A DNA stretch of 64,000 nt, from positions 16,820 through 80,819 of IMG/VR virus record IMGVR_UViG_3300014348_000112; one strand, 5' to 3'. Position numbers and translations under genes: made by a program. The notes under the pieces are model-generated. The model did not search any database and was not told the DNA's origin. It was given only the letters and a program-made list of their open reading frames with translations. This DNA comes from a virus. The stretch's first letter is position 1; every line of letters starts with the position of its first letter. Positions 34,966-64,000 of this stretch are shown here, piece after piece.

Positions 34966-35666
34966 TTCACCACCAGTCGGACGGTGGGCCGGCGCGCCTT
35001 GGCGGCGGATGGCCTCTTGGTCGGCGGACGGGAGCTGAGAATGCTGCGAACCTCAGTCATCGCGCGCGCCGAGACAGCAAAGTTGTTACCATGCGTCCCG
35101 CCAGTAACGCCATTAAGGATGGCGGCCGCCACCTTCTTTGCCGTCCTTAGATCGTACTTCTTTCCAAGAAGCACGTTGGTGCTGTTTCTGTAGCCGCCGC
35201 CGCTTGAGAATTTGTGCTCGATGCCCCACTCCGGAGAGCTTTCGTGCTTGATTATGGTTAAGTTCACTCGTTTTCCGTACTCTCCGCGCGCCGCTTCTAT
35301 CTCGGTAAAATGTCCGTAGCTCGCTTGCTTTCCAAATTCAACAGCGCCTGTGACCTCAAAGTTTGGTTCGCTGCCTTCTAGTGTGTCGTACCCGATTTCA
35401 GCGCTTTGCCCGCCGCCGGCCGCGCTCGTATCGTCAACCCACTGACCGCCGTCGGGGCTGCCTTTGGGTGCGCGCGGTTGGCTGGGGTTGTAGCCTTTCT
35501 CAACCACCAGCCGCACCACCGGCCGGCGCGCCTTCTTAGCCGCCTGCCTGGGCAGATGCTTGTCGGCCACGTAGCCGGGGACCTCCTGCTCTTTGTTGAG
35601 CTGGACGGCAATCAGCCAGTCGGCGTCTTCGTCGGTCTCGATCCATACTCTTGGCTCGTCGCTCAT
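34962..35666 (-). CDS. Tag-bearing protein: DADWL partner peptide, PSQPR tag, unknown domain
   Basis: ETDEDADWLIAVQL at the N-terminus; VEKGYNPSQPRAPKGSPDGGQW; the KARRPxVRLVV motif occurs twice. Confidence 0.75.
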   Translation of the reverse strand: MSDEPRVWIETDEDADWLIAVQLNKEQEVPGYVADKHLPRQAAKKARRPVVRLVVEKGYNPSQPRAPKGSPDGGQWVDDTSAAGGGQSAEIGYDTLEGSEPNFEVTGAVEFGKQASYGHFTEIEAARGEYGKRVNLTIIKHESSPEWGIEHKFSSGGGYRNSTNVLLGKKYDLRTAKKVAAAILNGVTGGTHGNNFAVSARAMTEVRSILSSRPPTKRPSAAKARRPTVRLVVK

Positions 35667-36895
35667 TTGCGCACCCTCGTGATTTCTAGCTCGCGACCAA
35701 CCAGGCCGTCGCCCAGCAGGATGACCTCCTCCTCGTTCAGGCAGCCGTAGCCGGTCGAGGCGTGGGCGAAGGCATACTTGACCGGCACCTTGACGGCGTA
35801 GACCAGGCCGACTTGCTTGTAGGCAGGTATAGCAAAGCCTCTGGCAGTTTCATAAGACAGGCTCCAGGAACTCAGCGGCCTGGGGCTGATCTTGATTTTT
35901 TGGCCAGCTTTTGCGTCGCCCCATTCGTAATCCTCTTTCTTAACGCCGCGGTACAGTACGATCTCGTCATCGGGACCTAAGCCCTTTTCTTTGAAAAACT
36001 CCTGAGTGCGGCGGTAGACAGAGTTGTAGGCGGCGCGGATGTTTCGCGCGCCTTCCTTTGCGTTTTCCGGGTACATCCGCCTGGTGTCTCTTACGGCGCT
36101 CATGCCCGTAGTGACCTGGATGTGCGCAGCGTCCTTTGACGAGAACCGTTCGAGCGCTTCTACCTGCATCACGTCTTGCCAACTGCCGTGGTCGTTGCTG
36201 GTGTTAGCCCAAGCTCGTTGAATTTCGTGTGCTAAGTCGGCGTCTAGCCCATCACGAGTCAGTGCTGTTTCGCCGGCAGTTTTCACGTCTTCTCTTTGTT
36301 GCTTGTGTGCCGCATTGTCTGGACTGTATCCATGCGGAAACGTCAACAAAGCGCGCTCGCGCTCAGAGTAGTAATCGTTGATGATTTGCGGCGAAAGCGG
36401 CGTTCGTCTCGCCTCTAGCCTGTCCACCCAGCCCATGCTTGGCATCGCCTCTTTGAGCTGGTCAGAAATCTCCTGCTCGCGCACCGCATCCAGAAACTCC
36501 TGGTTCTCAAAAGGAGCCGCTGGGTCAAATTCCTCAAGCGTGATGATGCCCGTTTCTCCCTGCACAGCCTGGATAACAATGCGTCCGACGCGCTCGCCAT
36601 CTTTGGTGTAATCAGCCAAAACGGTGAAGGTAACAGCGTCGCTCCACTCGCCGCTCCAGCCTCTGGTCCAACTGATCATCACCTCGGCGTCGTACCCTTG
36701 CACAGCGAGGGCTTGTTTGAGGCGCTCTACGTTGCCGCCGGCCGCGCCAAAGGTGTCCAGGCGGTCGATGTCCTCTTGGTGCGTCCCGCTGCGAAACTGG
36801 ACGTTGCTGGCAGAACCGCCGGCCGTGCTCGTATCATCCACCCACTGCCCGCCGTCCGGACTGCCCTTGGGTGCGCGCGGTTGGCTGGGGTTGTA
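35413..36895 (-). repeat. ~80-bp near-identical tag-encoding repeat (35413-35492 / 36816-36895)
   Basis: Both copies encode YNPSQPRAPKGSPDGGQWVDDTSxAGG. Confidence 0.9.
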
Positions 36896-36937
36896 CTTCT
36901 TCTCAGTTACCGAGATGCGGGAGACGATGATCTTCAC
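35663..36937 (-). CDS. Tag-bearing ADP-ribosyltransferase-like (R-S-E) protein
   Basis: TEKKYNPSQPR tag; LYRG...PRPLSSWS...YGCLNEEEVIL. GTG start at 36937 with a GGAG RBS is preferred over the track start at 37024. Confidence 0.75.
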   Translation of the reverse strand: MKIIVSRISVTEKKYNPSQPRAPKGSPDGGQWVDDTSTAGGSASNVQFRSGTHQEDIDRLDTFGAAGGNVERLKQALAVQGYDAEVMISWTRGWSGEWSDAVTFTVLADYTKDGERVGRIVIQAVQGETGIITLEEFDPAAPFENQEFLDAVREQEISDQLKEAMPSMGWVDRLEARRTPLSPQIINDYYSERERALLTFPHGYSPDNAAHKQQREDVKTAGETALTRDGLDADLAHEIQRAWANTSNDHGSWQDVMQVEALERFSSKDAAHIQVTTGMSAVRDTRRMYPENAKEGARNIRAAYNSVYRRTQEFFKEKGLGPDDEIVLYRGVKKEDYEWGDAKAGQKIKISPRPLSSWSLSYETARGFAIPAYKQVGLVYAVKVPVKYAFAHASTGYGCLNEEEVILLGDGLVGRELEITRVRK

Positions 36938-36939
36938 GG

Positions 36940-37383
36940 TCAGCTTCTCCGTTCCAGGCGCACGCGCGCCCAAACGTCGCCCGTCCCGCTTGGCTCGACG
37001 GCGGGAGACGAAACGTTGAACCACAAGCCGCCGAGCTTGATGGCGAACGCCTCTTGCACCGTCGCCACATCGGCGGACAAAACGTACAACTCCAGCGAAC
37101 CGGCCGGCGCGACACCGGCGGCGACCATCGTGCGCAGGTCGTCCGAGCTTTGCAACGGCACGATGTAGATCACCTCGCCGACAAAGTACCCGCTCGCCTC
37201 GAACGCGTCCAGGTCGTTCAGCACCGCGCCGCTGCCCGTCAGGATGCCGTCGCGCGACGCGTCAAACGCGTAGCCGGCCGGCAGCGACCAGTCGGCCAGC
37301 GGCGGGACTACGCTCATCGTTGGCTTGCCATAACGCAACCAAGCCCGGCGAAAAATTGCCTTGACCTTGAACGACAGGCTCAT
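36940..37383 (-). CDS. Head-closure / head-tail adaptor-like protein
   Basis: Synteny; 147 aa; ends VWARVRLERRS. Confidence 0.55.
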   Translation of the reverse strand: MSLSFKVKAIFRRAWLRYGKPTMSVVPPLADWSLPAGYAFDASRDGILTGSGAVLNDLDAFEASGYFVGEVIYIVPLQSSDDLRTMVAAGVAPAGSLELYVLSADVATVQEAFAIKLGGLWFNVSSPAVEPSGTGDVWARVRLERRS

Positions 37384-37715
37384 CGTCTCAACCTCTCGAC
37401 ACCTTCATGCGCCACCACGGCCAGGCCGCTCGCCGCCAGCACCAGCCTCAGCCAGTACACGGGGGTCAGCGGAAGCGCCAACAGCAGCGCCGCCCAAAAC
37501 GACATGCACCACACGCACGTCCACAGCTCGGCCACGGCGTTCGTCGCCACCTTCGTCGCCTCCGGCTGGCCGTCGTTGCCGCGCGTCACCACCGAGCGCA
37601 CGCCCAGGCGGTAGCGCAGCCGACTGAAGACCGCGCCGGGGCCGTCCTCGTTGACCAGCATGTACGCCAGCCGCCAGGAGGCCAGGCCCAGGATCACGAA
37701 GTCAAGCGTCGTCAC
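37380..37715 (-). CDS. DUF1360-like membrane protein
   Basis: LASWRLAYMLVNEDGP...ELWTCVWCMSFW pattern. Confidence 0.65.
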   Translation of the reverse strand: MTTLDFVILGLASWRLAYMLVNEDGPGAVFSRLRYRLGVRSVVTRGNDGQPEATKVATNAVAELWTCVWCMSFWAALLLALPLTPVYWLRLVLAASGLAVVAHEGVERLRR

Positions 37716-37917
37716 GATTAGGTTCCTTCTCGACCGCATAGGCCCACTCGCCATCGGCAAAGACGCCCACAGTCGTGACGCGCTGGCGGCGGGAGGCATC
37801 GGCGCCGCTGTAGCTCAGCACCAGCGCGCCGTCGTCCAGCGCGAAGGTGTTGGCCTCCACGTTCTCCAGCGGCTCCAGCTCGCCGATGGCGTTGCGGAAG
37901 TAGACCTGGATGGTCAT
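37702..37917 (-). CDS. Hypothetical protein
   Basis: ATGA coupling. Confidence 0.6.
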   Translation of the reverse strand: MTIQVYFRNAIGELEPLENVEANTFALDDGALVLSYSGADASRRQRVTTVGVFADGEWAYAVEKEPNRDDA

Positions 37918-38117
37918 GGGCCGGCCTCGTTTCTTGCCTCGAACTGGATGCCGTGGTCGCCAGGGTAGGGCTGGCGGTGGTCGTTGTCGCCCAGCCAGAT
38001 CGGGGCCGGGATGCCGTCAGGGAAGGCCGCGCAGAAGGGCGCCGCGCCCTCGGCAACGTGCCGGCAGAAGGTGCAGACCGGGCTGAACGGAACCCGCATG
38101 AGATCGTCAAGAATCAC
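37914..38117 (-). CDS. Small Cys/His protein downstream of the JAB cassette (candidate partner)
   Basis: CTFCRH...CAAFPDGIP...HRQPYPGDHGIQFE; overlaps the JAB gene stop. Confidence 0.68.
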   Translation of the reverse strand: MILDDLMRVPFSPVCTFCRHVAEGAAPFCAAFPDGIPAPIWLGDNDHRQPYPGDHGIQFEARNEAGP

Positions 38118-38928
38118 GGTGCGCCTCTCTTGTGTAGGTGAACGGGCAGGCGGCGCCCAGGCGGTCTTCGATTGAGACCCAGACCTCGTGCCAGAAGCGG
38201 TCGTTGACGTACTTGAGCGTGCTGCTGTCAGCGTAGTACGACAACTCGCTGACTTCGCCTGAGTAAACCTGGGGGAAATACCGGCGTCTCTGCTCGGTTT
38301 CCGCTTCTCTGATCATGCCGGCCAGGAGACGCCACTGGTCGTTGTCCAGCTTGCCGGACTTGTTGTGCATGATGTGGACATAATTAGCTGTCACGGCGCG
38401 TATCTCAGCCAGGCCCGTGCTAAACAGGGCCCGAGCGTCCGCTGGAGAAAGCGATGAGTCATACTGCGGGTGGTTGTGGGTCAGGGTTGCGCCAGGGAAC
38501 TGCGCAGTCTCAGAAAGAGACCAGTTAATGGAACTTGCGTCTCCTCGCTTGGTAAAAAGCAGCTTGCCGTCGGCGTTAAACACGGCGCCGATTTCCCATG
38601 TGGGAGCGAGGAGCCTTAGCTTTTTCTCAAAATTATCCAAAGCCATGTTTTCTTCAGCCTCTAAATCGGCGAGGCGCTGCAACTCTACTCGCCGTTGCCT
38701 TTGATCTTCTTCCGCCCTCCATATCGCCATCGCTTCTCTGTCATTCACCGCATTGGCGTAAGGATCGACGCTACCGCCTGCCCCATCCTTCGGCGCGAAC
38801 TGGCCGCCGCGCGGGTCGCCGGCTGGGTGGCGGTTGACGCGCGACTCGTCCCACGCCTTCTCTTGCGCGCGCCGCTCGATCCCGGCAAAGCCGAACGCAT
38901 CCCGCAGGTGGGCCAGTTGGTCGCTCAT
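38107..38928 (-). CDS. Tag-bearing JAB/MPN+ (JAMM) metallo-isopeptidase-like protein
   Basis: QEKAWDESRVNRHPAGDPRGGQF tag variant; WEIGAV...HNHPQYDSSLSPAD fits H-x-H-x7-S-x2-D. Confidence 0.75.
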   Translation of the reverse strand: MSDQLAHLRDAFGFAGIERRAQEKAWDESRVNRHPAGDPRGGQFAPKDGAGGSVDPYANAVNDREAMAIWRAEEDQRQRRVELQRLADLEAEENMALDNFEKKLRLLAPTWEIGAVFNADGKLLFTKRGDASSINWSLSETAQFPGATLTHNHPQYDSSLSPADARALFSTGLAEIRAVTANYVHIMHNKSGKLDNDQWRLLAGMIREAETEQRRRYFPQVYSGEVSELSYYADSSTLKYVNDRFWHEVWVSIEDRLGAACPFTYTREAHRDS

Positions 38929-39995
38929 TTCGCACACCACTCCTTGACCGCCTCAATCACCAGCCCCTGCTCGGCCTCGCTCATGCCGGCGAACATAGGC
39001 AGCGTCACCATGCGTCGCCACTCGCGCGCAGTCACCGGCGGCGTTGGCTGGTCGGCATAGGGCTTGTACAGGGTCAGCGGCTTGTAATGCACGCCGGCCG
39101 AGATGCCGCGCGCCAGCAGGTGGTCGATCAGGTCGTTGCGCCGCTCCGGCTCGGTGCGCACCACGAACAGGTGCCAGATGTGCTCTGCGCTCCAGGCCGG
39201 CAGCTCCAGGCCCGTCCCGTCCAGCTCAGCCATGTAGCGCAGGGCGATGGCCGTGCGCTGCTCCAGCATTTCGTCAAAGCGCTCCAGTTGTGCCAGGCCG
39301 ATGGCCGCCTGGATGTCGTTCCAGTGGCACTTGTAGCCGATCTCCTCGATGCAGTAGTCCCGGCCGTAGCGGTTCTGGCTGCGCTGCCAGGTGTCTCGGT
39401 CGATGCCGCACCACCTGAGCGCCCGCAGCCGGCTGGCCAGGGTCTCGTCGTCCAGCAGGATCGCGCCGCCGTCGCCCGTGGCCAGCGGCTTGACCGGGTG
39501 GAAGCTGTAGCACACGAAGTCGCCGTAGTGGTTGGGCAGCAGCGGCGCGTGGGCCGCATCCTCGATCACCGGCAGGCGCCAACTGCTCCAGGCGCTAGTG
39601 GCCGGCAGGCCGGCGTAGTCCACCGGCACGATGGCCTTGGTGGCGGGCGTGATGACCTGGGCCACGTCCTCCGGGTCCAGGCACAGCGTCACCGGGTCTA
39701 CGTCAGCGAAGACCGGCCGCGCGCCGGTGTAGGAGACGACCAGGGCGGTCGAGACGAAGGTCAGCGCCGGCACGATCACGTCGTCGCCCGGCCCCACCCC
39801 GCAGGCCAGCAGGCTCAGGTGCAGGGCCGCCGTGGCGCTGTTGACCGTGACGCAGTGGGCATAGCCGGTGCGGCGCGCCAGCTCAGCCTCGAACTCGGCG
39901 CAGCGGGGGCCGTTGCCCCACCAGCCGCTGTTAAGCACGTCCAAAACCGCAAAATTTGCGGATTCGCTGGTGGATGGTTGTAGAAGTGGGATCAC
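38925..39995 (-). CDS. DegT/DnrJ/EryC1/StrS-family PLP sugar aminotransferase
   Basis: GTG start after GGAGG; VNSATAALHL, VIEDAAH, YSFHPVKPLATGDGG. Confidence 0.92.
   Translation of the reverse strand: MIPLLQPSTSESANFAVLDVLNSGWWGNGPRCAEFEAELARRTGYAHCVTVNSATAALHLSLLACGVGPGDDVIVPALTFVSTALVVSYTGARPVFADVDPVTLCLDPEDVAQVITPATKAIVPVDYAGLPATSAWSSWRLPVIEDAAHAPLLPNHYGDFVCYSFHPVKPLATGDGGAILLDDETLASRLRALRWCGIDRDTWQRSQNRYGRDYCIEEIGYKCHWNDIQAAIGLAQLERFDEMLEQRTAIALRYMAELDGTGLELPAWSAEHIWHLFVVRTEPERRNDLIDHLLARGISAGVHYKPLTLYKPYADQPTPPVTAREWRRMVTLPMFAGMSEAEQGLVIEAVKEWCAK
39943..39965. promoter_or_regulatory. Operator-like palindrome, copy 4, inside the first DegT codons (copy 5 at 41631-41653)
   Basis: The - strand reads (g/a)aatccgcaaattttgcggtttt and encodes SANFAVL. 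Confidence 0.6.
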
Positions 39996-40171
39996 GCCGG
40001 CCTCCTGCGCAAGATAGCGGCGATGGGCTTGGCTTCTTTGGCTTCCACCGGACGCGGCGTACCTAGCAAGAAAGCGTCGGCGGGTATGCCGTCCTGATCC
40101 TTGCTCTGATGCTGTAGCGCAATCAGCCAATCGGCGTTACGGTCGTCTTCTGTAATCAAAATCTCACTCAT
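39992..40171 (-). CDS. 59-aa NADWL partner peptide downstream of ART (not in the ORF track)
   Basis: Hand-translated MSEILITEDDRNADWLIALQHQSKDQDGIPADAFLLG...PIAAILRRRPA; overlaps both the ART stop and the DegT start. Confidence 0.65.
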   Translation of the reverse strand: MSEILITEDDRNADWLIALQHQSKDQDGIPADAFLLGTPRPVEAKEAKPIAAILRRRPA

Positions 40172-41366
40172 ATCGTCTGATAACCTCCCACGGGTGGTCT
40201 GCTAACCACGAGCCGTGTACTACCGCTTCGTTTACCGCGAAAGCACCAAAGCCAGTCGTCCAATGCGAAAAAATCGCCTTGACAGGGACACGAACACCGA
40301 AAACAAGACCTACTTCGCCGTGCTTGCGGTGTAGAGCGAACTGGCTGGCTGAGTACGCGTTAGCGGAAAACGAGGACAAGGGGCGGGGCTTCACCGCTAC
40401 CTTTTCGCCTCTTACTGCGTTGCTCAAGTTCGGGTGTTCCGCTTTTGACAAGATCATGCCGCGATAGAGCACAACCTCGTCTTCGGGTTTCAGCCCTTGA
40501 GATTTGAAAAACTCTTGAGTTCGCCGATAGACAGAGTCATACGCTTTTTGCGCTTTGCTGTTCGTCTCGCGGTCTTTCTCTAGCAAAGCCGCAGCATTTG
40601 TTATGTCGTCATTGGTGCTCATGGATGCAGTTCTCTGCGCCCGATCCCATGCAACGGATTGCAGATGATCGCGTTCCTCGCCAGCCCATGCACCCCAATA
40701 GGCTTGAAACCTCCAGGCGTCGGGCGAGCCGGTGTCTTGCTTGAGAGCATTTACTCCGTCGTACCACATCCTCTCCCATTCACTTTCTGGCAAAGTTCCC
40801 GCATCAAACAGTGTCCTTTCTTGTTGCGAATAGAACGATCCATCAGCGGGGGCCAGATCGACAAAAACACCGTGCCAACCAAGAGCATCGCGGACGCTGC
40901 TTTTTGTTATGCGTCGCTCTAGGACGTTCTCAAGATTCGGTTCATCAAAGTCAGAATAGATGTACGATCCTGAAGCGTCTTCTCCTGCCTTTACAAAGCC
41001 AAGATTGTCCTTGTCTAATCGAATTTCTAGTATTCCGCCCCTGGTGCCGTCTAGATGGGAGTACCGAACAATCAGCATCGTTTTGGTTAGGTCTTCGTTT
41101 TTTGCAACTTGACCAACAGAGATTTCGGCGCTGTAGCCATCAACAGCAAAAAAGCTCAGAAAGTCGTTCGCGGTTTTAGCCTGCGCGCCAATGCCAACAC
41201 AATCCTTCCAAAGCAAAGATGCTTCGTCGTTTTTGAACACGGCTTTTGCGCCGCCACCCTCCGCCGCCCACTGCCCGCCGCGCGGGTCGCCGGCCGGCAC
41301 GCGCGGCTGATCCGGGTTGAACTTCTTCTCGGCCACCGAGACCTTGACGACGCGCAGGGTGGTCAT
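40164..41366 (-). CDS. Tag-bearing ADP-ribosyltransferase-like protein (variant catalytic loop)
   Basis: AEKKFNPDQPRVPAGDPRGGQW tag; LYRG...PRPLSSFS...FGAFAVNEAVV; AT-richer body. Confidence 0.75.
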   Translation of the reverse strand: MTTLRVVKVSVAEKKFNPDQPRVPAGDPRGGQWAAEGGGAKAVFKNDEASLLWKDCVGIGAQAKTANDFLSFFAVDGYSAEISVGQVAKNEDLTKTMLIVRYSHLDGTRGGILEIRLDKDNLGFVKAGEDASGSYIYSDFDEPNLENVLERRITKSSVRDALGWHGVFVDLAPADGSFYSQQERTLFDAGTLPESEWERMWYDGVNALKQDTGSPDAWRFQAYWGAWAGEERDHLQSVAWDRAQRTASMSTNDDITNAAALLEKDRETNSKAQKAYDSVYRRTQEFFKSQGLKPEDEVVLYRGMILSKAEHPNLSNAVRGEKVAVKPRPLSSFSANAYSASQFALHRKHGEVGLVFGVRVPVKAIFSHWTTGFGAFAVNEAVVHGSWLADHPWEVIRRYE

Positions 41367-41683
41367 TTTCGTATCACCACCGATCCGGTCTGCCCAAACA
41401 CGCCAGGCCGGCCCAGCGCCTCGCCGTACTCCTGGCAGGCGCTCAGGAACTCGCCATAGTCCAGCCAGCACTGCCAGATGCCGGTCTCCCGGTCCAGGTG
41501 CTGGTCGCCGTTGCCGAACCAGGTGGCCACGTACAGCACCTGTCGCGCCGCGCCGGCCAATTGCGCCAGCTCAGCCTCGAACTCGGCGCAGCGCGGGCCG
41601 TTGCCCCACCAGCCGCTGTTCAGCACGTCCAAAACCGCAAAATTTGCGGATTTGCTGGTGGATGGTTGGAGGAGTGGGATCAC
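41363..41683 (-). pseudogene. In-frame chimera of the DegT N-terminus and the methyltransferase C-terminus
   Basis: VIPLLQPS...AEFEAELA is joined to QLAGAARQVLYVATWFG... at the 8-bp microhomology GCGCCAGC (41563-41570). Confidence 0.75.
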
Positions 41684-41877
41684 GCCGGCCTCCTGCGCAA
41701 GATGGCGGTGATGGGCGCGTCTTTCTCGACCGGCGCCGGTGGCTTGGGTAGAAACGGCATGGTCTCCCATAGCGGGCGCAGGTCGTCCTCCGGGCCGGCT
41801 GCCTCGTCCCAGAACCATGCGTCGCTGCCGCCTACGTGGCCTTCCGGCGTGTTGATCAGCTTTTGTTCCTGAGCCAT
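41680..41877 (-). CDS. 65-aa GSDAWFW partner peptide downstream of GNAT (homologous to the MuF N-terminus)
   Basis: GSDAWFWDEAAGPEDDLRPLWETMPFLP versus GSDAWFWSAALEPEDTIRPYWETMPFLP at 59004. Confidence 0.72.
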   Translation of the reverse strand: MAQEQKLINTPEGHVGGSDAWFWDEAAGPEDDLRPLWETMPFLPKPPAPVEKDAPITAILRRRPA

Positions 41878-42698
41878 AGCTTGCCTCTCCATGATCCGTG
41901 GCCGGACTTGTCCAGCATGAACGCTTTTCCTGCCTCGTAATCGCCCGGCTTGATGTCTGGATTCTCGATGGCCGTGTGCGGCAGCTTGACACCAGGGATG
42001 CGGTAGTTGGCCACGTCCTGCGGCGTCCTGAACCGGGGCCATCCGCCGGGCGGTTGATTGATGCCGTTTCTCCTGGCCCATGACAGGAACTTACCCGAAG
42101 CCTGCCGCGCGTCGTTGTTGTCGCTGTACTGAAAGCCTTGCTTTGCCCAGGCGTAGCGCCCAATCGAGATGTCAGCCTGCAATCGGATTTGGTCAACGGT
42201 CGTTTCTTTCGTCAATATCTCGATCTGCCTCTTGTACAGGTCTTGAGCGAGACCACGGTTCTGGAACTTTTGCGCAAAAACCAGTTCATCGTCCAGGCAA
42301 AAAGCTACGTCGCGGTCAAACATGAACTCTCTTTTGCTATGGCCGATTCTTTCTTTTGTGGCCGGGTCTGTCCATTTCGTTTCAATCGAGAGAGTGTTGT
42401 AATCCCGGTTTCTGCCAATGGTGATGCTCGTGTCATAGCCGGGAAGCGAAAGCATCCTTTTGATGTGGTCTTTGGTCATACCGAAACGTTGAAGTTCGTT
42501 GTCCTCATAACCCTGAGCAAAGTCCTTGACCTTGACCGTCACCTTGCCCTGGGGATGGCCAACAGGCGCAGACTCGCTACCTGCGCCACCCTCCGCCGCC
42601 CACTGGCCGCCCTGCGGGTCGCCGGCCGGCACGCGCGGCTGGTCGGGGTTGAACTTCTTCTCGGCCACCGAGACCTTGACGACGCGCAGGGTGGTCAT
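41856..42698 (-). CDS. Tag-bearing GNAT-like acetyltransferase protein
   Basis: AEKKFNPDQPR tag; KFQNRGLAQDLY...IRLQADISIGRYAWAKQGFQY. Confidence 0.68.
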   Translation of the reverse strand: MTTLRVVKVSVAEKKFNPDQPRVPAGDPQGGQWAAEGGAGSESAPVGHPQGKVTVKVKDFAQGYEDNELQRFGMTKDHIKRMLSLPGYDTSITIGRNRDYNTLSIETKWTDPATKERIGHSKREFMFDRDVAFCLDDELVFAQKFQNRGLAQDLYKRQIEILTKETTVDQIRLQADISIGRYAWAKQGFQYSDNNDARQASGKFLSWARRNGINQPPGGWPRFRTPQDVANYRIPGVKLPHTAIENPDIKPGDYEAGKAFMLDKSGHGSWRGKLWLRNKS

Positions 42699-43426
42699 TT
42701 TCGTATCACCACCGATCCGGTCTGCCCAAACACGCCAGGCCGGCCCAGCGCCTCGCCGTACTCCTGGCAGGCGCTCAGGAACTCGCCATAGTCCAGCCAG
42801 CACTGCCAGATGCCGGTCTCCCGGTCCAGGTACTGGTCGCCGTTGCCGAACCAGGTGGCCACGTACAGCATTCGCCGCGCCGCGCCGCGCCGGCCAATTG
42901 CGCCAGCGCCGGCCGCCAATCGGCAAGGTGCTGCAAGACCTGGAAACACAGCACGTTGTCGGCGCTGGCCGGCTCCAGGGCCAGGATGTCCAGCGCAGTG
43001 AACGCCACGCCGGGGTAGTTGGCCCGCGCCAGCGCCAGCATCTCCAGCGACGAGTCGCCGCCGCGATAGGCCCGGCCATCCAGCAGGCCGGCGTCCCGCA
43101 GTGCGCCGTACATGCGCCCGGACCCGCAGCCCGCCTCCAGCACGTCGCCCGGCGCTAGGTGAGGGCGCAGGTCGTCGCACAGCGCGCCACGATGCGGTGA
43201 TGTTCGCCGTCCCCAGCACCAGCGCCTCGTCGTTGGCGTCGCCGCCGTAGGTGTTGTCACCGCTGATGGCCAGCCCGTCGATCTTGCGCAGCTCGTCCAG
43301 ATAGCCGGCGCGCGCCGCGGTCAGTCGCGTCTCCAGGTCGTCCACACTGGTCTGGAGCGCCAGCCCGTCCTGGACCTCAGCCGCCGTTAGGTCGTCTTCA
43401 GTCTCGTACCAGTTGATGGACGCCAC
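42695..43426 (-). pseudogene. Class I SAM methyltransferase disrupted by two compensating frameshifts
   Basis: VLEAGCGSG / GGDSSLEML / VLCFQVLQHL lie in a different frame from both the N-terminus and the C-terminus; extra CGCGG unit at about 42865-42892. Confidence 0.7.
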
Positions 43427-54087: not shown

Positions 54088-56268
54088 CTATTCGTGGACG
54101 ACGCGCTTGAGACGCGCCAGCCAGTCATCGGCCATCGGATCGTCGCCGGCCTTGGCCTCTACAGCCTCTTTCGACTTCGTGGCCCGGTACTCGTCGCCGG
54201 CTTGGAGGCGACGCACGGTCGCGCGGGGCAGGTTGGCTACCTTCTCAGCGACCTTGGCCTCGTCGGACTGCTTCATGGCCTGCACGTCCTGCGCGTTCTT
54301 CTCGACGACGGTGCGCAGGGATTTCACATCGTCGAGAGCGGCCTTGAGCGCAGCGGCGATCTGGTCGAGCTGCCCCTGGATGGCGCCGGCGGCCTTCTCG
54401 GCCACCGCATTCAGCGCATCCTCGGTCAGCACCAGCTCGTACTCGCCGCCGTCCAACGAAGGCGCCTTAGCGGCCTTCTCCATGTCTTCCTCGTCGTCCT
54501 CTTCGTCGGCCGGGACGACCTCATCGACCGGGGCCTCGTCGTCCGGGGTGGCGGCTTCGGTGGTCTCTTCGTCTTCGTCCTCGCCATCCTCCGGCTTAGC
54601 AGACGCCTTGGCCCGCACGCCTGCCTGCTTCAGCATCTCGGCGTTGGAGTCGAGCTGGTCCAGAATTGTCACGGCCAAGTCTATGCCCAGCACGGTCTCC
54701 AACTCCTCACGCTTTTCCTGGCTGATTTTCGCCATCTTGCTTACCTCCGAGAGTTGTAGAGCCGACCACGGGAAAGCCGCCCGCTCCCTGCGCATCAGGC
54801 TCCGTTCCAAAATCGCACCAGGCGGGGTGTACACCCCGTCGGGCGAGCGATTCGCATAGAGAAACTTGATCGAGGCCCCCGTCTCTTTGGCGTGGGCCTT
54901 GTAGTAGCTGGCCGCGCGCCGGCCGGCTGGCGTGTCGTCGAAGGTGCCGCTCTCCAGCAGGAAGCCCGGCTCTCCCACGACGGCCTGGTAGTCGCACTCG
55001 CCGATCTTGGCGCCAGGGATGTGGAAAATCAGCAGCGGCCCGCGCTGCCGACTCTTGTCGGCCACGGCCACGGCTGAGCGCAGGAACTCGGTGCTGACGA
55101 CTTCCTTGTCGCGATCCTCAAAGCCGCCGCTGGAGATCAGCACCCAGCGGGTCTTGCCGTCCGGCTGGTCGAAGGCTTTGAAGGAGACCAGGGTGGGCAG
55201 GTCGGCGGCTTTCTCCTCGTCTTCCCACAAGTCAGCTTCGCCCAGCCTTTCAGAAACATAGCTTACATCGCCCACGTCGCCCCAGTCGGGTGCCTTGATG
55301 GACTCGTATTTCTTGACGCGCTTGCCGATGCTCTTCAGCAAGCGATCAAAATCCGTCCTGTAGCGACGGTATGCTTCCGGCGCGGTCTCGCCTTTCCGGA
55401 CAGCCGTATCGTACCCCTCGTACGCGTCATCGTTTGCCAGGGGAGCCTCAACGTCGGCCAGCTTACTTGTGACATGAGAAATGTCGCCCACGTGAGCCCA
55501 GTCGGGGTCAGATACATCCTGACTTAGTTTGTCGGAAATCTTCTCTATCATGGCCTGAGCCGACCGGAGCCGCGCTGGCATCGTCTTGGCAGCAGAGTCG
55601 CCAGGGTCGCCCAAAACGCCTTTAGGTGGCTTGACGGGTCCAGCTATGATTTTGCCGGCCGGGCCGTCTCCCTTCTTGCCGCCACCCTCGCCGGCTCCGT
55701 CCTTGGGCGCGAACTGGCCGCCGCGCGGGTCGCCCTCTGGGTGACGTTCTACCATCGACTCGTCAAAGCGCCGCTTCTCGACCGCCTCGCCGGCCTCGCC
55801 ATCCTTCCACGCCTTGACCGCCTCGTCGCCGTACACGGCCCGCAGCCGGCCCAGGAAGTCGGCCCGGTCTGTGTCCGCGTCTTTCTCCTCGACGTTGGCG
55901 TACAGCGCGGCCTGGTAGGCCAGCGCGTCCTTGCGGTCGGGGTAGCACTTCATCTTGCCGGCCAGGCTGCCGTCGTCGTTCATTTGGTAGACGCAGTGCT
56001 GGCCATCCTCTTCAACCACTTTCCACGGCATGATTGCCTCCTGCGCCGGCTCCTGACCGCCCCACACCTGGTTGATGCCAGGCGGCTCGTCTTGCTCTTT
56101 GTGGGCCAGGGACGCCCTGACCGCTTTCCATGCCGCCCGGTAGGCGGTCTTCTCGTCGTCGCTGCCGGCGCCGTTGAACACGTCAACCCACTGCTGGCGC
56201 AGGGGCTTGGCCATGCGGCGCACGGCCGGCGGCAGGTCCTTGTCGTTGGGGCCGATGAAGGCAGCCAT
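54088..56268 (-). CDS. ChaB-like + tag + prohead protease-like + acidic scaffold fusion
   Basis: DLPPAVRR...WVDVFN...AYRAAWKAV (ChaB-like); VEKRRFDESMVERHPEGDPRGGQF; WVLISSGGFEDRDKEVVS...HIPG; acidic coiled-coil C-terminus before the capsid gene. Confidence 0.68.
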   Translation of the reverse strand: MAAFIGPNDKDLPPAVRRMAKPLRQQWVDVFNGAGSDDEKTAYRAAWKAVRASLAHKEQDEPPGINQVWGGQEPAQEAIMPWKVVEEDGQHCVYQMNDDGSLAGKMKCYPDRKDALAYQAALYANVEEKDADTDRADFLGRLRAVYGDEAVKAWKDGEAGEAVEKRRFDESMVERHPEGDPRGGQFAPKDGAGEGGGKKGDGPAGKIIAGPVKPPKGVLGDPGDSAAKTMPARLRSAQAMIEKISDKLSQDVSDPDWAHVGDISHVTSKLADVEAPLANDDAYEGYDTAVRKGETAPEAYRRYRTDFDRLLKSIGKRVKKYESIKAPDWGDVGDVSYVSERLGEADLWEDEEKAADLPTLVSFKAFDQPDGKTRWVLISSGGFEDRDKEVVSTEFLRSAVAVADKSRQRGPLLIFHIPGAKIGECDYQAVVGEPGFLLESGTFDDTPAGRRAASYYKAHAKETGASIKFLYANRSPDGVYTPPGAILERSLMRRERAAFPWSALQLSEVSKMAKISQEKREELETVLGIDLAVTILDQLDSNAEMLKQAGVRAKASAKPEDGEDEDEETTEAATPDDEAPVDEVVPADEEDDEEDMEKAAKAPSLDGGEYELVLTEDALNAVAEKAAGAIQGQLDQIAAALKAALDDVKSLRTVVEKNAQDVQAMKQSDEAKVAEKVANLPRATVRRLQAGDEYRATKSKEAVEAKAGDDPMADDWLARLKRVVHE

Positions 56269-57099: not shown

Positions 57100-59004
57100 C
57101 TAACTCCTCATCAACTTCCAGATCAGGTCGAAGTGGTCAGGGTCATCGTTGGCAAACTTGGCTGGAATGTAGCGCATGGCCTCGATGCCCATCGAAACCA
57201 CTTCGGTAGCAGTAATCTGAGTACCTTTGCCACCGTAATAGACTTTGCCTACATAGGGGTCGTAGAAGGAATCAGGGATGGCAATTTCGTCATCGGCATA
57301 GCCGCTGTCCGGTCGAAGGTTGCGCAAAAAAGCACCCGATGAGTTAATAGTGCGCCGGCGATAGAAGGCGACCGCCTCGTCCAACGCGCCAGTCGCTGTT
57401 TCCTCGAAATGATGACCCAGCTCGTGAACGATTTGCGAACTGGCAAACGCGCCCTTGATCGACGCTTCTGCTTGGTCTAGACGATCAGCAGAGAAATAGG
57501 CAGCACGTCCGGTCGTGCCAGGTAAAATCAGCACCTTGCCTGCTGCCTTGCTGCCAACTAGCCGGTTAAACTCGGCGAAACCCTGAGTGATAGCTTCGCG
57601 CTGTCTATCTGTAATCGCGTCGCTGAACTCTGGCGTCACCGTGCCAGGCGTCTTGGCCCACAACAGACTTAACTGGTCATCAACAAACTTGGAATGAAGA
57701 TCATTCTCGGCGCGATACATGGCTTCGATGCGCCGCCTCATACCGTCAATGACTTGTTCGCTTTCCTCGGTCCCTGCTACACCGTCGGCCAGTTGCTTGC
57801 TAAAGGTCTGACTTGCTTCTTCGACAAGCCGATCCTTTTCAGCAGTGAGCCGGGCCAGATCGTCAGCGTGGCGCTTCTTGATCTCCGCCAGCTTCGCCCG
57901 CACCTCCGGCCCAGTCATGGCCTGTCCCGTGCTGCCGGCTGGGCTGCTGCCGGCGCCTTCGGGCGCCCACTGGCCGCCGCGTTCGTCGCCGGCCGGGTAG
58001 CGCGGCTGGTCGGGGTTGTAGCGCTTCTCGACCTCGCCCGGCATGGTGGGCAACGGGTAGGGCCGGGTGCGAGCTTCTAGCTCAGCGGGGTTCGCATTCA
58101 GCCAGCACCTACACGCGGGATGCGATGGCGGCTTGTAGTAGCGCCCGTTTTCCGGGTTCAGAATGCCGGTCGTCAGGTTGCCCACCTGATTATGTAGAGG
58201 CCGGCAGACCTTACATACCCTTTCATCCCGTGCAGTCTGCCAGGTGAAAGTTTGCAGCCCTGCCGCCTTCAGGCCGGCCATGCGGGCTTCCGCGTAGACG
58301 CGCGTCGTCTCGGTCTGGGCGATGACGCGCGGCCGGTCTACCAAGTTCGGATAGGGGTTGGTGGGCACCAGCCGCCACACCTTCTCGGTCAGCTCCTCGA
58401 AGTCCTGGTCGCTGGCGATCCAGCGGCTGATGGTGCGCCCCAGCATAGTCTGGGTGGAGGCGTTGATCCTCGTCACCAGGTCGTAGCGGTACTTCATCGC
58501 CCACTGCTCGGCGGCCCGGTCCCAGATGTCCCAGGACAGCTCGACGCCCAGGTCGGCCAGTTGCACCCAGATCGACTTCTTGGCCGTGCCGATCACGCCA
58601 TCCAGCACTGGCGTCAGCCCAGCCCACAGCCGGCCCTGCTCCTGGCCCCAGTCGAGGCCGATGGTGATGGCGATCTGCCGGCGTATCTTGCGGGCCTCCT
58701 CCAGTGCCTTGCGGTTAGCGCGCAACTGCCGGCGCAGCCGCACCCACTGGCCGGCGAAGAACAGGAACATGGCAGCCTGGATCAGCTTCTCGCTGTCGCG
58801 CCGCTCTTCGTCCAGCGGGTCGTCGGCGAAGGTGGTCTCCTCTTTGGCGGCCACGCGCGCCACCTGCGCCGGCCGGGGCAGGAAGGGCATGGTCTCCCAG
58901 TAGGGGCGGATAGTGTCTTCCGGCTCCAGCGCGGCCGACCAGAACCAGGCATCGCTGCCGGTCAGCTTCTGGCCGTGGCGCGCGTCTATCACTTTTTGAG
59001 CCAT
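57100..59004 (-). CDS. MuF / SPP1 gp7-like head morphogenesis protein with a tag and a C-terminal HExxH metallopeptidase-like domain
   Basis: IAQTETTR...WQTARDERVCKVCRPL...HPACRC (MuF); VEKRYNPDQPRYPAGDERGGQW; IVHELGHHFE...TEVVSMGIE. Confidence 0.85.
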   Translation of the reverse strand: MAQKVIDARHGQKLTGSDAWFWSAALEPEDTIRPYWETMPFLPRPAQVARVAAKEETTFADDPLDEERRDSEKLIQAAMFLFFAGQWVRLRRQLRANRKALEEARKIRRQIAITIGLDWGQEQGRLWAGLTPVLDGVIGTAKKSIWVQLADLGVELSWDIWDRAAEQWAMKYRYDLVTRINASTQTMLGRTISRWIASDQDFEELTEKVWRLVPTNPYPNLVDRPRVIAQTETTRVYAEARMAGLKAAGLQTFTWQTARDERVCKVCRPLHNQVGNLTTGILNPENGRYYKPPSHPACRCWLNANPAELEARTRPYPLPTMPGEVEKRYNPDQPRYPAGDERGGQWAPEGAGSSPAGSTGQAMTGPEVRAKLAEIKKRHADDLARLTAEKDRLVEEASQTFSKQLADGVAGTEESEQVIDGMRRRIEAMYRAENDLHSKFVDDQLSLLWAKTPGTVTPEFSDAITDRQREAITQGFAEFNRLVGSKAAGKVLILPGTTGRAAYFSADRLDQAEASIKGAFASSQIVHELGHHFEETATGALDEAVAFYRRRTINSSGAFLRNLRPDSGYADDEIAIPDSFYDPYVGKVYYGGKGTQITATEVVSMGIEAMRYIPAKFANDDPDHFDLIWKLMRS

Positions 59005-59975
59005 AGCACTCCGCTCCAGTCGCCGTGGCCGAATTGGTCCAGCATGAACGCCTTGCCGACCTCGTACTCGCCGCTCTTCACTTCGTCGTTGGCAATGTCC
59101 CGGTGGGAGACCTTGACGCCCGGCAGCTTGAAATTGGCGAACTCCTGCGGCGAAGTGAAGTCAGGCAGGTCGGGCAAGCTGCCGGCCTCCACGCCCAGGC
59201 GCGTCAGATAGCGCCGAAACTGGCGGTTGTAGACACCGACCTCTTCAGGCCGGTAATACTGAAAGCCCTTCTTGGCCCAGGCGTAGCGGCCGATGGAAAT
59301 GTCGGCAAAGAGCCGGATAGCGTCGATCTCGGTCTCTTTGGCCATGACCTCGATCTGGCGCTCGTAGAGCTTGTGGGCCAGGTCGTGATCCTGGAACTGC
59401 GGCTCGAAGATCATCTCCTCGTTGTAGCAAATCTGGTGCTGCCCCTCGTCCATGATGAGGCGCTCGGCTGTGCCCACCGGGGCGCCGCTTGTGTCAAACC
59501 ACTCGGCGCGCACAATGAAGGCCGGCTTGTGAGCGCGCGGGTTGGAGTAGAGCTGGTCGCCGGTGTAGACCTCCAACTTGGCCACGTAGCCGTCCAACTC
59601 GAACATCTGGCGCAGCTCACCCTCGTCGATGCCCAGGCCGTCCATTGCCCACCGGCAGTCGCCCTTGCCCTTCTCGCGGTAGACGATTTTGGTGGGCCGG
59701 GCCGGCTTGGCCGGCCGGAGGGCTTGCCGGGCCTCAGCGCCGCCGGCCGCCGCATCGTCGGTCCACTGGCCGCCGCGCTCGTTGCCGGCGGGGACGCGCG
59801 GCTGGTCGGGATCGAACTTGGCCGCCACCTGCCAACCGCGCGCCGCTGCCATCGCCTGCACACGCTCCAGGTCCAGCAGCAGGTCGGCCGGCAGCGCCAC
59901 GCCGTGGGCGCGCGCAAAGGCAGCCGTCGCCAGGACAGCCTGCGCCGCGCGTGCGCCTTCGGCGGGAGCGATCAT
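58989..59975 (-). CDS. Tag-bearing GNAT-like acetyltransferase protein (paralog of 41856-42698)
   Basis: AAKFDPDQPRVPAGNERGGQW; QFQDHDLAHKLY...IRLFADISIGRYAWAKKGFQY. Confidence 0.68.
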   Translation of the reverse strand: MIAPAEGARAAQAVLATAAFARAHGVALPADLLLDLERVQAMAAARGWQVAAKFDPDQPRVPAGNERGGQWTDDAAAGGAEARQALRPAKPARPTKIVYREKGKGDCRWAMDGLGIDEGELRQMFELDGYVAKLEVYTGDQLYSNPRAHKPAFIVRAEWFDTSGAPVGTAERLIMDEGQHQICYNEEMIFEPQFQDHDLAHKLYERQIEVMAKETEIDAIRLFADISIGRYAWAKKGFQYYRPEEVGVYNRQFRRYLTRLGVEAGSLPDLPDFTSPQEFANFKLPGVKVSHRDIANDEVKSGEYEVGKAFMLDQFGHGDWSGVLWLKK

Positions 59976-60873: not shown

Positions 60874-60878
60874 ACTTA

Positions 60879-61754
60879 TTATTGCCTCCTGTAGTCGTAA
60901 CCGAGTACCATCGCAAGTTCCATGTTTATTCCGTGACTATGCTCTTTCCATGCGCTCCGTGCGCTGACTTTGCCCATCGTCACAAGTGCCTGGTATCGAG
61001 GAAATTCTTTCATTTTGATTTCATTCCACTCGTTGAAAACATACTTCTGGTCTTCCGGCATAGGATCATTCGCGTTTTTCCAAAGTGTGAGTTTCTTTGT
61101 AGAAGGACGTTTTGATGCTGTGTAAACCGCGCCGTCATGGCCAATCACCACCATGTGCAACGAAGGGGTAGACAAGAAAAGACGAATGTCAGCATCAGAA
61201 AACGACGCCGAGAACGGGTGATTATGAACACTAAGAAACGCCTTTGAGTCTTCTATGGCCCCGATGTCGCTCACACTGTCTTCGTTGCCGGTCGTATCAC
61301 TCAAAACGTTTCCGGCTGCGTCCAGCACAATTAAGCGCTCGTTGCCGGTTTTCAGTCCGTGATCCTGAGCCGCGTTAAGGGCCTGAGCCAGCGCGAAGCG
61401 GGCGTCAGGCGAAATGTCGTAGATACCTGCTTCTCCGTTGCTATTTGCGCCACCATCGCTCTCGCCACCCCCGCCGCCATGCACCGACTGCGGCGTCCCT
61501 GTGCCGGGATGGTCGCCTGGGCCGGCGTGCTTCTCCGCCTCTTCGCGCCAGTATGCGTACAGGTAGCGTCCGGCGACGTGCTGCTCGATGTAGTCAAATG
61601 CCTGGCGCAAGGACGCCTTGTCAGTGACCTGGCTCCAGTCGTACAGGGACTGCACCGCACCGTCAACAACCGCCGCATCACCAGCGACAGAGGCGGCGCC
61701 CAGGTCGCGCTCGTCACCGCTACGCTCTAGCTTGGTAAACACAATTTTCGTCAT
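60879..61754 (-). CDS. JAB/MPN-like protein with a divergent AEKHAGPGDHP linker
   Basis: GNERLIVLDAAG...SVHNHPFSASFSDADI; AT-rich C-terminal domain. Confidence 0.72.
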   Translation of the reverse strand: MTKIVFTKLERSGDERDLGAASVAGDAAVVDGAVQSLYDWSQVTDKASLRQAFDYIEQHVAGRYLYAYWREEAEKHAGPGDHPGTGTPQSVHGGGGGESDGGANSNGEAGIYDISPDARFALAQALNAAQDHGLKTGNERLIVLDAAGNVLSDTTGNEDSVSDIGAIEDSKAFLSVHNHPFSASFSDADIRLFLSTPSLHMVVIGHDGAVYTASKRPSTKKLTLWKNANDPMPEDQKYVFNEWNEIKMKEFPRYQALVTMGKVSARSAWKEHSHGINMELAMVLGYDYRRQ

Positions 61755-61764
61755 GGTCTACGCC

Positions 61765-64000
61765 TCAATAGCTCCACTCGCGGAAAAGGGGCCACGGCGC
61801 TCTCTGGGCTTGCCTCAGCGCTTCTTCTGTATCATCGTCCACTGGCGGAGCGGCGGGTGCTTCGCTGACCGCCGGCAAGGACAAAGCCGATGGCCCGTCC
61901 CACTCCCGCCAGGCTACAAGTCCGCTTTTCGTAATGCTTTGGAAGTTGCTCCAGGCGTTCTCTGGATTGACCTTTGTCTCTCCGAACTCCGGCACATCCC
62001 GAAAGGCGCCAAGGAACTCCTCTTTGGTTATGCGAGACCATCGCTCCAGCTTCTCCGGGGAGATGCGCAATTTGCCCGGTTTTCGGGCAAGCCAGTAATT
62101 CACCAGCGTGTTCCAATAAAGCTCGTTAGACTCGTTACCTTCGTTTGATGTCCAATTGGCGCCGCCGTTGTCGATGGCCCACACTCGGTCCTCGCCGACA
62201 ATCCAGTTTGCTGTGTGGCGATCATAGTTGTCGATGATAAAGTCCAGCACCACCACATCCTCTGTGGCGCGCGGCAAGATGTCCAGCGCTGTTTGGCTGC
62301 CGTACCGTGCCGTCCACTCAGCGCCAAGCGTCCCGTCAACGAACTGCTGCGCCGTGCCAAGCGCCCCCTCAAACTCCTCGTAGCGAGTAGGAGGAACACA
62401 GTCCATGCCCAGCACCTGGGCGATCTCATAGGCCGCCACTTCGGAGTTGCCGTCCTGTCCGCTTTCGCCTCTGACCGGCTTCCAAACCCAGCGCGTCCCG
62501 TTCTCGTCCTCAAGTAGGATGCTCGTGTTAATGCCGCCGCCCAGGTTCTTAACCTTGCGCGACGTGCTTGTCCTGCCACGCCGGCCGGCCTCCGGCTCCG
62601 GCGGTGGCACTGGCGGCAAGCCCATGTCTGCCCGCATAGCGTTGATGTCGCCGGTGGTGATGTCCAACTGCGCGTTGGCTGCGGCTGTAGTGCCCCCACC
62701 CTCTGGTCGCCACTGCCCGCCGCGCTCGTCGCCGGCCGGCCAGCGGGGCTGGTCGGGGTCAAAGGCTTTCTCCGCCTCCAGCAGCGCAGCCGTGGCCTGG
62801 CGCAAGCTGGCGATTAGCTCGTCGGCTTGCTGGGTGGGGAGGTTGGGCCTGGCTTGCCTGGCTTGCTTGGCCGGCGTTGGCTCAGCCGGAGCCTCTTGTC
62901 CGGCTCCCGCCTGGGCCGCGCCGCCTTCGGGTCGCCACTGCCCGCCGCGCGGGTCGCCTTCTGGCCAGCGTGGCTGGCCGGGGTCGAAGCGCTTCTCAGC
63001 GTCGCCCAAGATGAACGCGTCGCCGCGCGCCAGGTCCAGGTCGGTCGGCGTGCCAAGGCGGGCCTTCTTTTGCCGCTGAAGCTCCACCAGCCAGTTGGCG
63101 TTGTAGTCGTCCTCGACCAGGGCAAGCATAGGCGCCAAAGACGCGCTGGCTCGCCTGGCCTTCTCGCGCGTTCGGTCTTTGATCTCGACAATCTCCCACG
63201 GGGCGTCGTTCAGGTACTCGCCCAGGACGATCATCTCTTCTTCGTCGGCGCAGCCAAAGCCGGTTGACCAGTGCGAGAAAACTGCCTTGGCCGGCACGCG
63301 CACGGCAAAGGTCACGCCGTACTGGCCGGGCATCGCGTCGCCAGGGCCGAAACTCTTGGCCACCGTGTGCGACAATGAGAAGGAAGACAAAGGCCGAGGC
63401 TTAACCCGGATTTTGTCGCCCGGAAGCATGTCTTTGAGACTACCGAAGACCGGACTTGCGTCACTAATCCACATCCCGCGATAAAGAACCAAAGTGTCGT
63501 CCGGCTTGATGCGCTTGCTTTGCAGGTACTCTTGGGTGCGGCGGTAGACAGACTGGTACGCCCTCGCGCCCTCATCAAAAGTCTTGACGCTATCGTTGCC
63601 GGCCAGCGCGTCGCCGCGTCGCGCTTGCGCTGCCGTCATGCCGTCGAACCACACCAGGTCGTCTTTCTCGCCCGACTTCTCAGCCGCCACAACGTGAATC
63701 ACGTCCTGCCAGTCGCCGTTATCATGTGCACTGGTAGCCCAGGCCGTCTGGACGCGGGCTGCCTCCGCGCTGGAAACGCCATCTGCCGCCAGCGAGTTTT
63801 CGCCGCGCCACTTGATGTACTGGCGAAAACTCTCAGACGTGGCAGCTTCGGGATAGGGCAGGGAGACACCATAGCGCCGGACGAAGAACTCGTTTAACTC
63901 GTCTTTCTCCATTTGCTTGATGCGCATCCACTCTTCGTCAAAGCGCAGGCTCTTTTCCGTCATGGAGAAGGTCTCGCCGCCCGGCAACGGCGCCAGATCA
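61765..64000 (-). CDS. Multi-domain protein: ART-like + NANWL peptide + two tags + PI3K/HipA-like kinase; probably 5'-truncated
   Basis: Frame open to the window edge; LYRG...PRPLSSFS...FGCADEEEMIV; GGGINTS...VWKP...SEVAAY...DFIIDNYDRHTANW...AIDNG. Confidence 0.75.
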   Translation of the reverse strand, partial: DLAPLPGGETFSMTEKSLRFDEEWMRIKQMEKDELNEFFVRRYGVSLPYPEAATSESFRQYIKWRGENSLAADGVSSAEAARVQTAWATSAHDNGDWQDVIHVVAAEKSGEKDDLVWFDGMTAAQARRGDALAGNDSVKTFDEGARAYQSVYRRTQEYLQSKRIKPDDTLVLYRGMWISDASPVFGSLKDMLPGDKIRVKPRPLSSFSLSHTVAKSFGPGDAMPGQYGVTFAVRVPAKAVFSHWSTGFGCADEEEMIVLGEYLNDAPWEIVEIKDRTREKARRASASLAPMLALVEDDYNANWLVELQRQKKARLGTPTDLDLARGDAFILGDAEKRFDPGQPRWPEGDPRGGQWRPEGGAAQAGAGQEAPAEPTPAKQARQARPNLPTQQADELIASLRQATAALLEAEKAFDPDQPRWPAGDERGGQWRPEGGGTTAAANAQLDITTGDINAMRADMGLPPVPPPEPEAGRRGRTSTSRKVKNLGGGINTSILLEDENGTRWVWKPVRGESGQDGNSEVAAYEIAQVLGMDCVPPTRYEEFEGALGTAQQFVDGTLGAEWTARYGSQTALDILPRATEDVVVLDFIIDNYDRHTANWIVGEDRVWAIDNGGANWTSNEGNESNELYWNTLVNYWLARKPGKLRISPEKLERWSRITKEEFLGAFRDVPEFGETKVNPENAWSNFQSITKSGLVAWREWDGPSALSLPAVSEAPAAPPVDDDTEEALRQAQRAPWPLFREWSY

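Follow-up and report, generated by a model that had tools for sequence, protein, structure and literature searches.

Phages inject enzymes that reprogramme the host, and ADP-ribosyltransferases (ARTs) are the commonest such cargo; to our knowledge, how toxic cargo enzymes stay harmless in the cell in which the virions are assembled is largely unaddressed. The present analysis concerns a short peptide found next to the ART domains encoded in a window of 64,000 nucleotides, which corresponds to bases 16820-80819 of the 101,006-bp IMG/VR virus record IMGVR_UViG_3300014348_000112 (rated complete by CheckV) and has a G+C content of about 65%. Coordinates refer to this window, position 1 being its first letter, unless they are given as genome coordinates. 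The ARTs and their peptides sit in a virion and cargo module on the minus strand, whose cargo genes carry a recurrent tag, (F/Y)(N/D)PxQPRxPxGxxxGGQ(W/F). Three paralogous ART domains of the R-S-E type (catalytic Arg, Ser and Glu) can be found there, each with a segment hxh(E/D)xDxxNA(D/N)WL coming next, once fused to the ART, once as a free gene and once as the N-terminus of the following gene. An earlier note on this DNA had described a peptide after each ART in these three architectures, and all three sites were confirmed as follows.

63145..63822, minus strand: ART-A domain (R-S-ExE), supported by alignment and by an AlphaFold2 (AF2) model, inside a giant open reading frame (ORF)
63004..63126, minus strand: peptide A, fused in cis, with the core LALVEDDYNANWLVELQ, then GTPTDLDLA, then the generic pre-tag element GDAFILG
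62935..62964, minus strand: tag P-x-G-x3-GGQW directly after peptide A
40164..41471, minus strand: ART-B gene, which encodes a tag at the N-terminus, then a middle region, then the ART domain (40167-40799)
40461-40463 (Arg), 40371-40376 (Ser-Ser) and 40227-40229 (Glu), minus strand: catalytic residues of ART-B
39992..40171, minus strand: peptide B, a free gene of 59 amino acids (aa) that starts MSEILITEDDRNADWLIALQ and has no tag
35663..37024, minus strand: ART-C gene; a tag lies at its N-terminus, and the ART domain, whose catalytic loop reads EEE, spans 35666-36277
35550..35666, minus strand: peptide C (core at 35589-35651), forming the N-terminus of the cargo gene that comes next (34962-35666)
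35439-35468, minus strand: tag after peptide C, followed by an unknown domain

Peptide A reads ..LALVEDDYNANWLVELQRQ..GDAFILG and lies in frame about 20 aa past the ART-A domain. The giant ORF that contains both runs beyond the window (61765-64000 and on; genome 78584-83560) as an open frame of 1658 aa, in which a portal-like N-terminus, a tag, an unknown Cys-containing domain, a second tag, a pre-ART region, the ART, the peptide, two further tags and a PI3/4-kinase-like domain follow one another. The portal-like call (Atlas 0.96) is a lead only, and the ORF is in effect a portal-fused polyvalent protein. The gene of peptide B overlaps the stop of ART-B by 8 nt, as in translational coupling, and has a GGGAGG Shine-Dalgarno sequence upstream. 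The gene that begins with peptide C (234 aa) starts MSDEPRVWIETDEDADWLIAVQ, carries the motif within its first 25 residues and shares an ATGA overlap with the ART-C gene. ART-A and ART-C have EEE at the ExE position, whereas ART-B reads V-N-E, with Val in place of the first Glu.

Regarding specificity, the strict pattern [DE]..[ND]A[DN]W[LIV] can be found only at sites A and B in the six frames of the whole 101-kb genome, while the looser A[DN]W[LIVF][LIVW] occurs there five times, three of these being the peptide sites A, B and C. Pairwise identity is 41-44% among the ART domains and about 50% among the peptide cores. Because the cores are 57-62% identical in DNA with synonymous codon differences, and the ARTs only 41-44% identical, the peptide is under selection at the protein level and does not stem from a recent copying of DNA; an element acting at the DNA or RNA level was rejected as the cause of the conservation on the same DNA identities and synonymous differences. 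The DAF(I/L)LG half of the segment resembles a generic element (FAELFG, LRATFGF, LRDAFGF) that precedes P-x-G-x3-GGQ(W/F) tags after non-ART domains, and as judged from these sequences the ART-specific part is the first half only, hxh(E/D)xDxxNA(D/N)WL(I/V)x(L/V)Q. The ART specificity claimed in the earlier note for the whole peptide thus holds for the NADW core and has to be given up for the DAFxLG half. In a close subfamily, the core is followed by an element G(T/R)P(T/S)DL(D/E)L(A/S) (63030-63056; L006:1283-1450), which resembles the LDLA box of ExoS, the site at which its 14-3-3 cofactor is bound.

The ART family was delineated with a profile search of 1.84 billion representatives, which gave 2474 relatives (751 at E≤1e-10), many of them giant polyvalent phage proteins with up to 11 copies of the domain; the best 150 homologues were used further. 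Across 37-56 homologues, little or no variation is seen, in this order, at R115 (in YRG), S146/S147 (in PLSS(F/W)S) and E196, and E194 is nearly invariant. The Pfam family DRAT (PF07357) is matched by 22 of 56 members at E≤0.1 (best 4.9e-6), all under the gathering score, while neither PF03496 nor the polyvalent-ART model matched members of the family. A search of PDB sequences with the ART profile gave chance nanobody matches only, searches by pattern in viral and genome contigs turned up no relatives of the ARTs, and word-indexed protein searches, with the ART and with the peptide profile, returned only the window's own proteins. The AF2 model of ART-A with its peptide has a mean predicted local distance difference test (pLDDT) of 78.8 and a predicted template modelling (pTM) score of 0.80, and its top 50 PDB structure matches all belong to the ART superfamily, nearly all of the R-S-E type, including Vis (Z 5.7), iota Ia (Z 5.1), ART2.2, ExoS, C3 and VIP2; the Z values are modest and the list is uniform. 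Given the invariant R, S-S and E-x-E, the sub-threshold DRAT matches and the uniform R-S-E list, we accept the family as DraT-like R-S-ExE ARTs, previously unrecognised as such.

The association between motif and ART extends to other phages. A 20-column hidden Markov model (HMM) of the motif, built from segments downstream of ARTs, was run on the 174,400 residues of the best 150 of the 2474 homologues. All 59 matches of at least 8 bits are linked to an ART: 57 lie 12-72 aa (median 36) past the ART end, and the other two lie at the extreme N-terminus of small ART proteins (L007 and L009) whose genes directly follow another ART gene and are each followed in turn by a further motif-initiated gene, including one of the LigT type. 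No match follows another domain, in agreement with the earlier note, which had not seen the peptide after any non-ART domain; the core motif was never found behind an unrelated one. In L004, a related 102-kb phage, a C-like ART and a 60-aa motif gene occupy the DegT-adjacent site held by ART-B in the present phage, and ART and peptide therefore seem to move as a unit. An unrelated ART in the same phage (PF03496, ADPrib_exo_Tox; L004:6473-7476) is followed by a 66-aa gene without the NADW motif, which ends with the pre-tag-like ..RLAENFGFAG... In L006, the motif opens the gene that follows, and a different type of tag comes after it.

The IMG/VR collection was also scanned from the motif side, with a degenerate DNA pattern back-translated from D-x-x-N-A-D-W-x-K, which gave 72 loci. 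Strong matches, i.e., those with a motif-HMM score of at least 20 bits, number 26, and in 21 of them a DraT-like ART lies directly upstream. In three more, the motif is carried by a free 76-aa gene that comes straight after a polyvalent protein of 3245 aa in which copies of the same ART are embedded; of the last two, one has too little upstream DNA to judge and one belongs to an unrelated tail-fibre-like protein. The 23 ART-linked loci comprise 12 fusions in frame and 11 cases at the start of the next gene. The degenerate pattern also catches unrelated proteins (44 of the 72 loci), which are set apart by the motif-HMM score. Many of these false positives are out of frame or belong to a tail-fibre-like family, ..L(L/T)xY(S/N)xD(F/L)(S/T)NADW(I/L/V)K.., without an upstream ART; loci of this NADW family, with a tail-fibre or receptor-binding look, are L018, L027, L029, L033, L056, L058, L064, L072 and L080. 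The co-occurrence that the earlier note had proposed as a check was borne out, the motif being found with this family of ARTs in numerous unrelated phages, where the three architectures recur and two others are added. It is common in the family, in cis or in trans, but not universal. The motif segments have no Pfam match at E≤10 and no PHROG family. A small gene directly downstream that moves with the ART rather than with its flanks is what was found, as expected of a toxin-immunity pairing.

This conservation bears on the idea that the peptide is a functionless hitch-hiker, i.e., a remnant of the start of a downstream gene that was carried along when an ART cassette was copied. Recombination has shuffled the cassettes, the junction of a tandem duplication can be seen near 41.5 kb, and cassettes with a GNAT-like domain likewise bring a downstream peptide along. 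However, the peptide core is at least as conserved as the enzyme, with synonymous changes, and its Trp is invariant across phages with unrelated tags and neighbours. Such conservation across unrelated genomes contradicts a remnant without function, which we regard as very improbable indeed.

Binding of the peptide to the ART was predicted by co-folding the ART-B domain (211 aa, 56-row alignment) with the 59-aa peptide B (31-row alignment), each with its own unpaired alignment. The check that the earlier note had suggested gave a positive prediction: the interface score ipSAE (interaction prediction score from aligned errors) was 0.81 (0.80, 0.84 and 0.81 in the individual runs) against 0.19 for the best control. 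In the calibration of this score, which is only roughly valid here since own alignments were used, 58 of 80 solved complexes attained the mark, as did 2 of 110 mismatched pairs. The pLDDT of the partner was 50-52, the runs agreed in at least 61% of contacts, and confident contacts came only from peptide residues 2-23. Residues I6-E8 pair with strand 134-139 of ART-B, which leads into the Ser-Ser motif, N12 contacts residues 114-117, W15 contacts R113, G114, S143 and F154, and L16 contacts E191, V189 (the first ExE position) and S143. The peptide is thus predicted to lie in the catalytic cleft, with its Trp-Leu pair against the catalytic Arg, Ser-Ser and Glu, the residues that hold NAD+ in R-S-E ARTs (PMC8120803). 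The G(T/R)P(T/S)DL(D/E)L(A/S) element makes no confident contact in the ART-B co-fold. In the cis model of ART-A, the motif has a pLDDT of 74-83 against 55 for the preceding linker, a profile compatible with docking. Most alignments to PDB ARTs end at about residue 220 of this model, before the motif, those with MTX being among the few that reach the motif region, and the motif thus lies outside the canonical ART core. That it is an integral last strand of the ART fold was rejected in general, two thirds of the homologues having no cis copy and most PDB alignments stopping earlier.

Taken with the linkage, the predicted position of the peptide argues for a cognate active-site plug, in cis or in trans, which probably silences the virion-packaged ART during assembly and would be released by head proteolysis and unfolding upon ejection. 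The reading given in the earlier note, of a cognate inhibitor or immunity peptide that acts in cis or in trans, is thus supported on computational grounds. The core hxh(D/E)xDxxNA(D/N)W(L/I) would be the cognate binding partner of DraT-like R-S-ExE ARTs that are packaged into phage heads as cargo. A short strand of the peptide would pair with the ART strand leading into the Ser-Ser motif, and the turn and helix that come next would bring the invariant Trp and the adjacent residue up to the catalytic Arg, Ser-Ser and Glu within the NAD+ cleft, so that NAD+ could not bind and the ART would stay silent in the cell that builds the virions. The plug could be supplied in cis, tethered by a linker of 12-87 aa, or in trans, as a free protein of 59-97 aa or at the N-terminal end of the cargo protein that follows. 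Release may take two steps, the linkers or tags being cut by the head protease and the cargo being unfolded on ejection, after which the ART, now rid of the plug, would refold in the newly infected cell. No packaging tag is found on the free peptides, from which we infer a factor that stays behind in the producer cell. In all, the linkage in sequence and its breadth are observed, the binding and the place in the cleft are predicted, and inhibition and release are inferred.

The release step brings up a second reading of the motif, as a processing or packaging signal of the ART cassette (a protease site or a capsid docking site) with no effect on catalysis. The motif is always found in the linker between the cargo domain and the next tag, and the phage has a candidate prohead protease. 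Yet the free genes of 59-97 aa hold little beyond the motif, which rules them out as linkers or cleavage sites, no motif accompanies other cargo domains that have the same tags, and the co-fold puts the peptide on the ART with high confidence relative to controls. A mere processing signal is accordingly improbable in our estimation.

The serious rival is a positive partner, in which the peptide is needed for activity as a lid, cofactor or chaperone that completes or steadies the ART cleft or serves target recognition, solubility or translocation. The same predicted binding applies to it, the strand I6-E8 extends the ART sheet by pairing with 134-139, and a plug would require a removal of the cis-fused copies that is so far hypothetical. 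A TDLDLA-like element follows the core in the close subfamily and recalls the C-terminal box of ExoS that binds a cofactor. Several points speak against it, however. Most homologous ART domains do without a cis motif, so the fold does not need it, and most PDB ART alignments end before it; the predicted contacts of the Trp-Leu pair are with the catalytic residues Arg, Ser and Glu, where NAD+ must bind; and free peptides without tags would not obviously reach the target cell. We consider a positive partner rather unlikely, if clearly deserving of attention.

With regard to the active-site plug itself, several observations weigh against it. No signal of co-evolution was found, the interface columns being the same in motif-bearing and motif-less ARTs (mean divergence 0.13, against 0.17 elsewhere), which is nevertheless as expected, because a plug would target the invariant catalytic cleft. 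The predicted binding is backed by the model's own confidence, obtained with unpaired own alignments. ART-B keeps its peptide despite the loss of the first Glu of ExE. The fused forms, including that in the 11-copy polyvalent protein, need a release step, which is hypothetical. Moreover, the cis motif is present in 57 of the 177 internal ART homologue domains and absent from 120 (68%), and no motif gene lies near the ART of the sampled phage P0005 or near the C-terminal ART P0032 (L010). The earlier note had held that ART homologues commonly lacking the peptide would refute a cognate partner. This lack is real as far as the cis motif goes, but it is partly made good in trans: among six polyvalent proteins without a cis motif that were sampled by rank, four have a motif gene of 69-97 aa directly downstream, one is ambiguous and one has none. 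A motif gene of this size behind a polyvalent ART protein gives the classic order of toxin gene, then immunity gene.

Three known systems can be compared with the present one. In type VI secretion, a short extension of Tri1 occludes the active site of the R-S-E ART toxin Tre1 (PMC8120803). Both cases have an R-S-E ART, a short occluding partner segment (predicted here) and a partner gene adjacent to the toxin gene. Unlike the peptides described here, which are of 59-97 aa or fused and have no recognisable domain, Tri1 has a DraG-like hydrolase domain that reverses the modification; no DraG-like ADP-ribosylhydrolase domain was found in the peptide partners with Pfam at E≤10. The setting also differs, a secretion system there and phage virion cargo here. 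In pierisin-1, an autoinhibitory linker follows the ART domain, as mentioned in PMC7828395. As in pierisin-1 and MTX, the segment is just C-terminal to the ART in the same chain, with a latency until processing that is known there and proposed here. However, there is no sequence relation, the segment is a separate gene in about half of the present cases, and any proteolytic activation would be putative here. Lastly, small ORFs usually come after MuF toxin genes and have been proposed as immunity genes that protect the producer cell (PMC5576092); like the present peptides, they are encoded immediately behind the gene of a head-associated toxin. Only the size of the ORFs supported that proposal, whereas a defined conserved motif, an interchange between cis and trans and a predicted binding mode can be given here, and the present ARTs are found in portal-fused and tag-bearing cargo proteins and not on MuF. 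By sequence or domain content, the peptide system is not a member of any of the three cases, yet its logic matches all of them. Regarding the ARTs alone, multi-copy ART domains have been described in giant virion-associated polyvalent proteins of phages, in a clade of the H-Y-D type (Tox-ART-HYD2-like) (Iyer et al., 2017; PMC5512222). The multiple copies and the giant virion-associated proteins are shared features, but the present family has R, S-S and E-x-E instead of H-Y-D, and a word search of the text of PMC5512222 found no mention of the post-ART motif.

The region is taken as a virion and cargo module because of its MuF-like head protein. An HK97-gp10-like neck protein is also found in it, and the long ORF at 29713-33240 was called a tape-measure protein by eye only, with no PHROGs family. 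The features that bear on the head, and the tags, are positioned as follows.

57100..59004, minus strand: MuF-like head protein, which bears a tag and ends in a metalloprotease-like domain (Pfam Phage_Mu_F, 2e-09, above the cutoff)
54679..55311, minus strand: candidate prohead protease domain of the HK97 type (Peptidase_S78-like), residues 320-530 of a 726-aa gene at 54088-56268
35439-62964: range of the tag positions within the window; further tags at genome 81242-81271 and 81941-81970 (beyond the high end of the window) and at genome 7534-7563 (outside the window)

The S78-like call comes from Atlas features (0.94) and from a structural template modelling (TM) score of 0.56-0.65 to S78 clusters, Pfam and PHROGs giving no match for the domain; the protein is a lead only, as a candidate enzyme for any processing in the head. 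The same 726-aa protein also has a variant of the tag, ..ERHPEGDPRGGQF, and its C-terminus is acidic, coiled-coil-like and reminiscent of a scaffold. In two cargo proteins (60879-61754 and 38107-38940), a JAB/MPN-like signature HNHPx(6-7)SxxD was seen by eye, Pfam being silent. Over the cargo genes, neither the ART domains nor the peptide genes and motif segments were matched by Pfam or PHROGs, and PHROGs gave weak unnamed matches to some other cargo genes only.

The tag can be found in 14 copies in the genome, which either stand N-terminally in cargo proteins or separate the domains of these, 13 of them in the region of the virion module. In unrelated phages, other tags take the same positions, namely KHLPGRHDQKSH, GGxGSGNxGHxGRPGxxGGS and EKHAGPGxHPGTGTPQSVHGGG. 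Upstream of ART-B (39900-43100), a copy of the 3' end of an upstream gene can be found together with a tag-bearing start (MTTLRVVKVSVAEKKFNPDQPR..) and the first ~45 codons of DegT. These repeats look as expected from a tandem duplication that placed the GNAT and ART cassettes side by side. The two GNAT-like cassettes (58989-59975 and 41856-42470) are each followed by GSDAWFW..(L/I)RPxWETMPFLPxP (58939-58953 and 41809-41823, minus strand), one copy being the N-terminus of the MuF-like protein and the other a free ORF. This suggests that each type of cargo may carry its own downstream partner.

A broader view, which we put forward as a tentative and on the whole doubtful possibility, is that the NADW peptides represent a widespread, uncatalogued class of minimal plugs of about 20 residues that act as latency switches and are freely exchangeable between cis and trans, every head-packaged effector cassette having its own plug and being armed by the unfolding that accompanies ejection. 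The motif would also be a practical annotation marker for the DraT-like ART family and its partners. If the active-site plug is correct, a motif of 20 residues would predict the inhibitor of an ART, fused or free, across a span from small cargo genes to polyvalent proteins of 7000 aa, and would offer a natural peptide scaffold directed against the NAD+ cleft of R-S-E ARTs.

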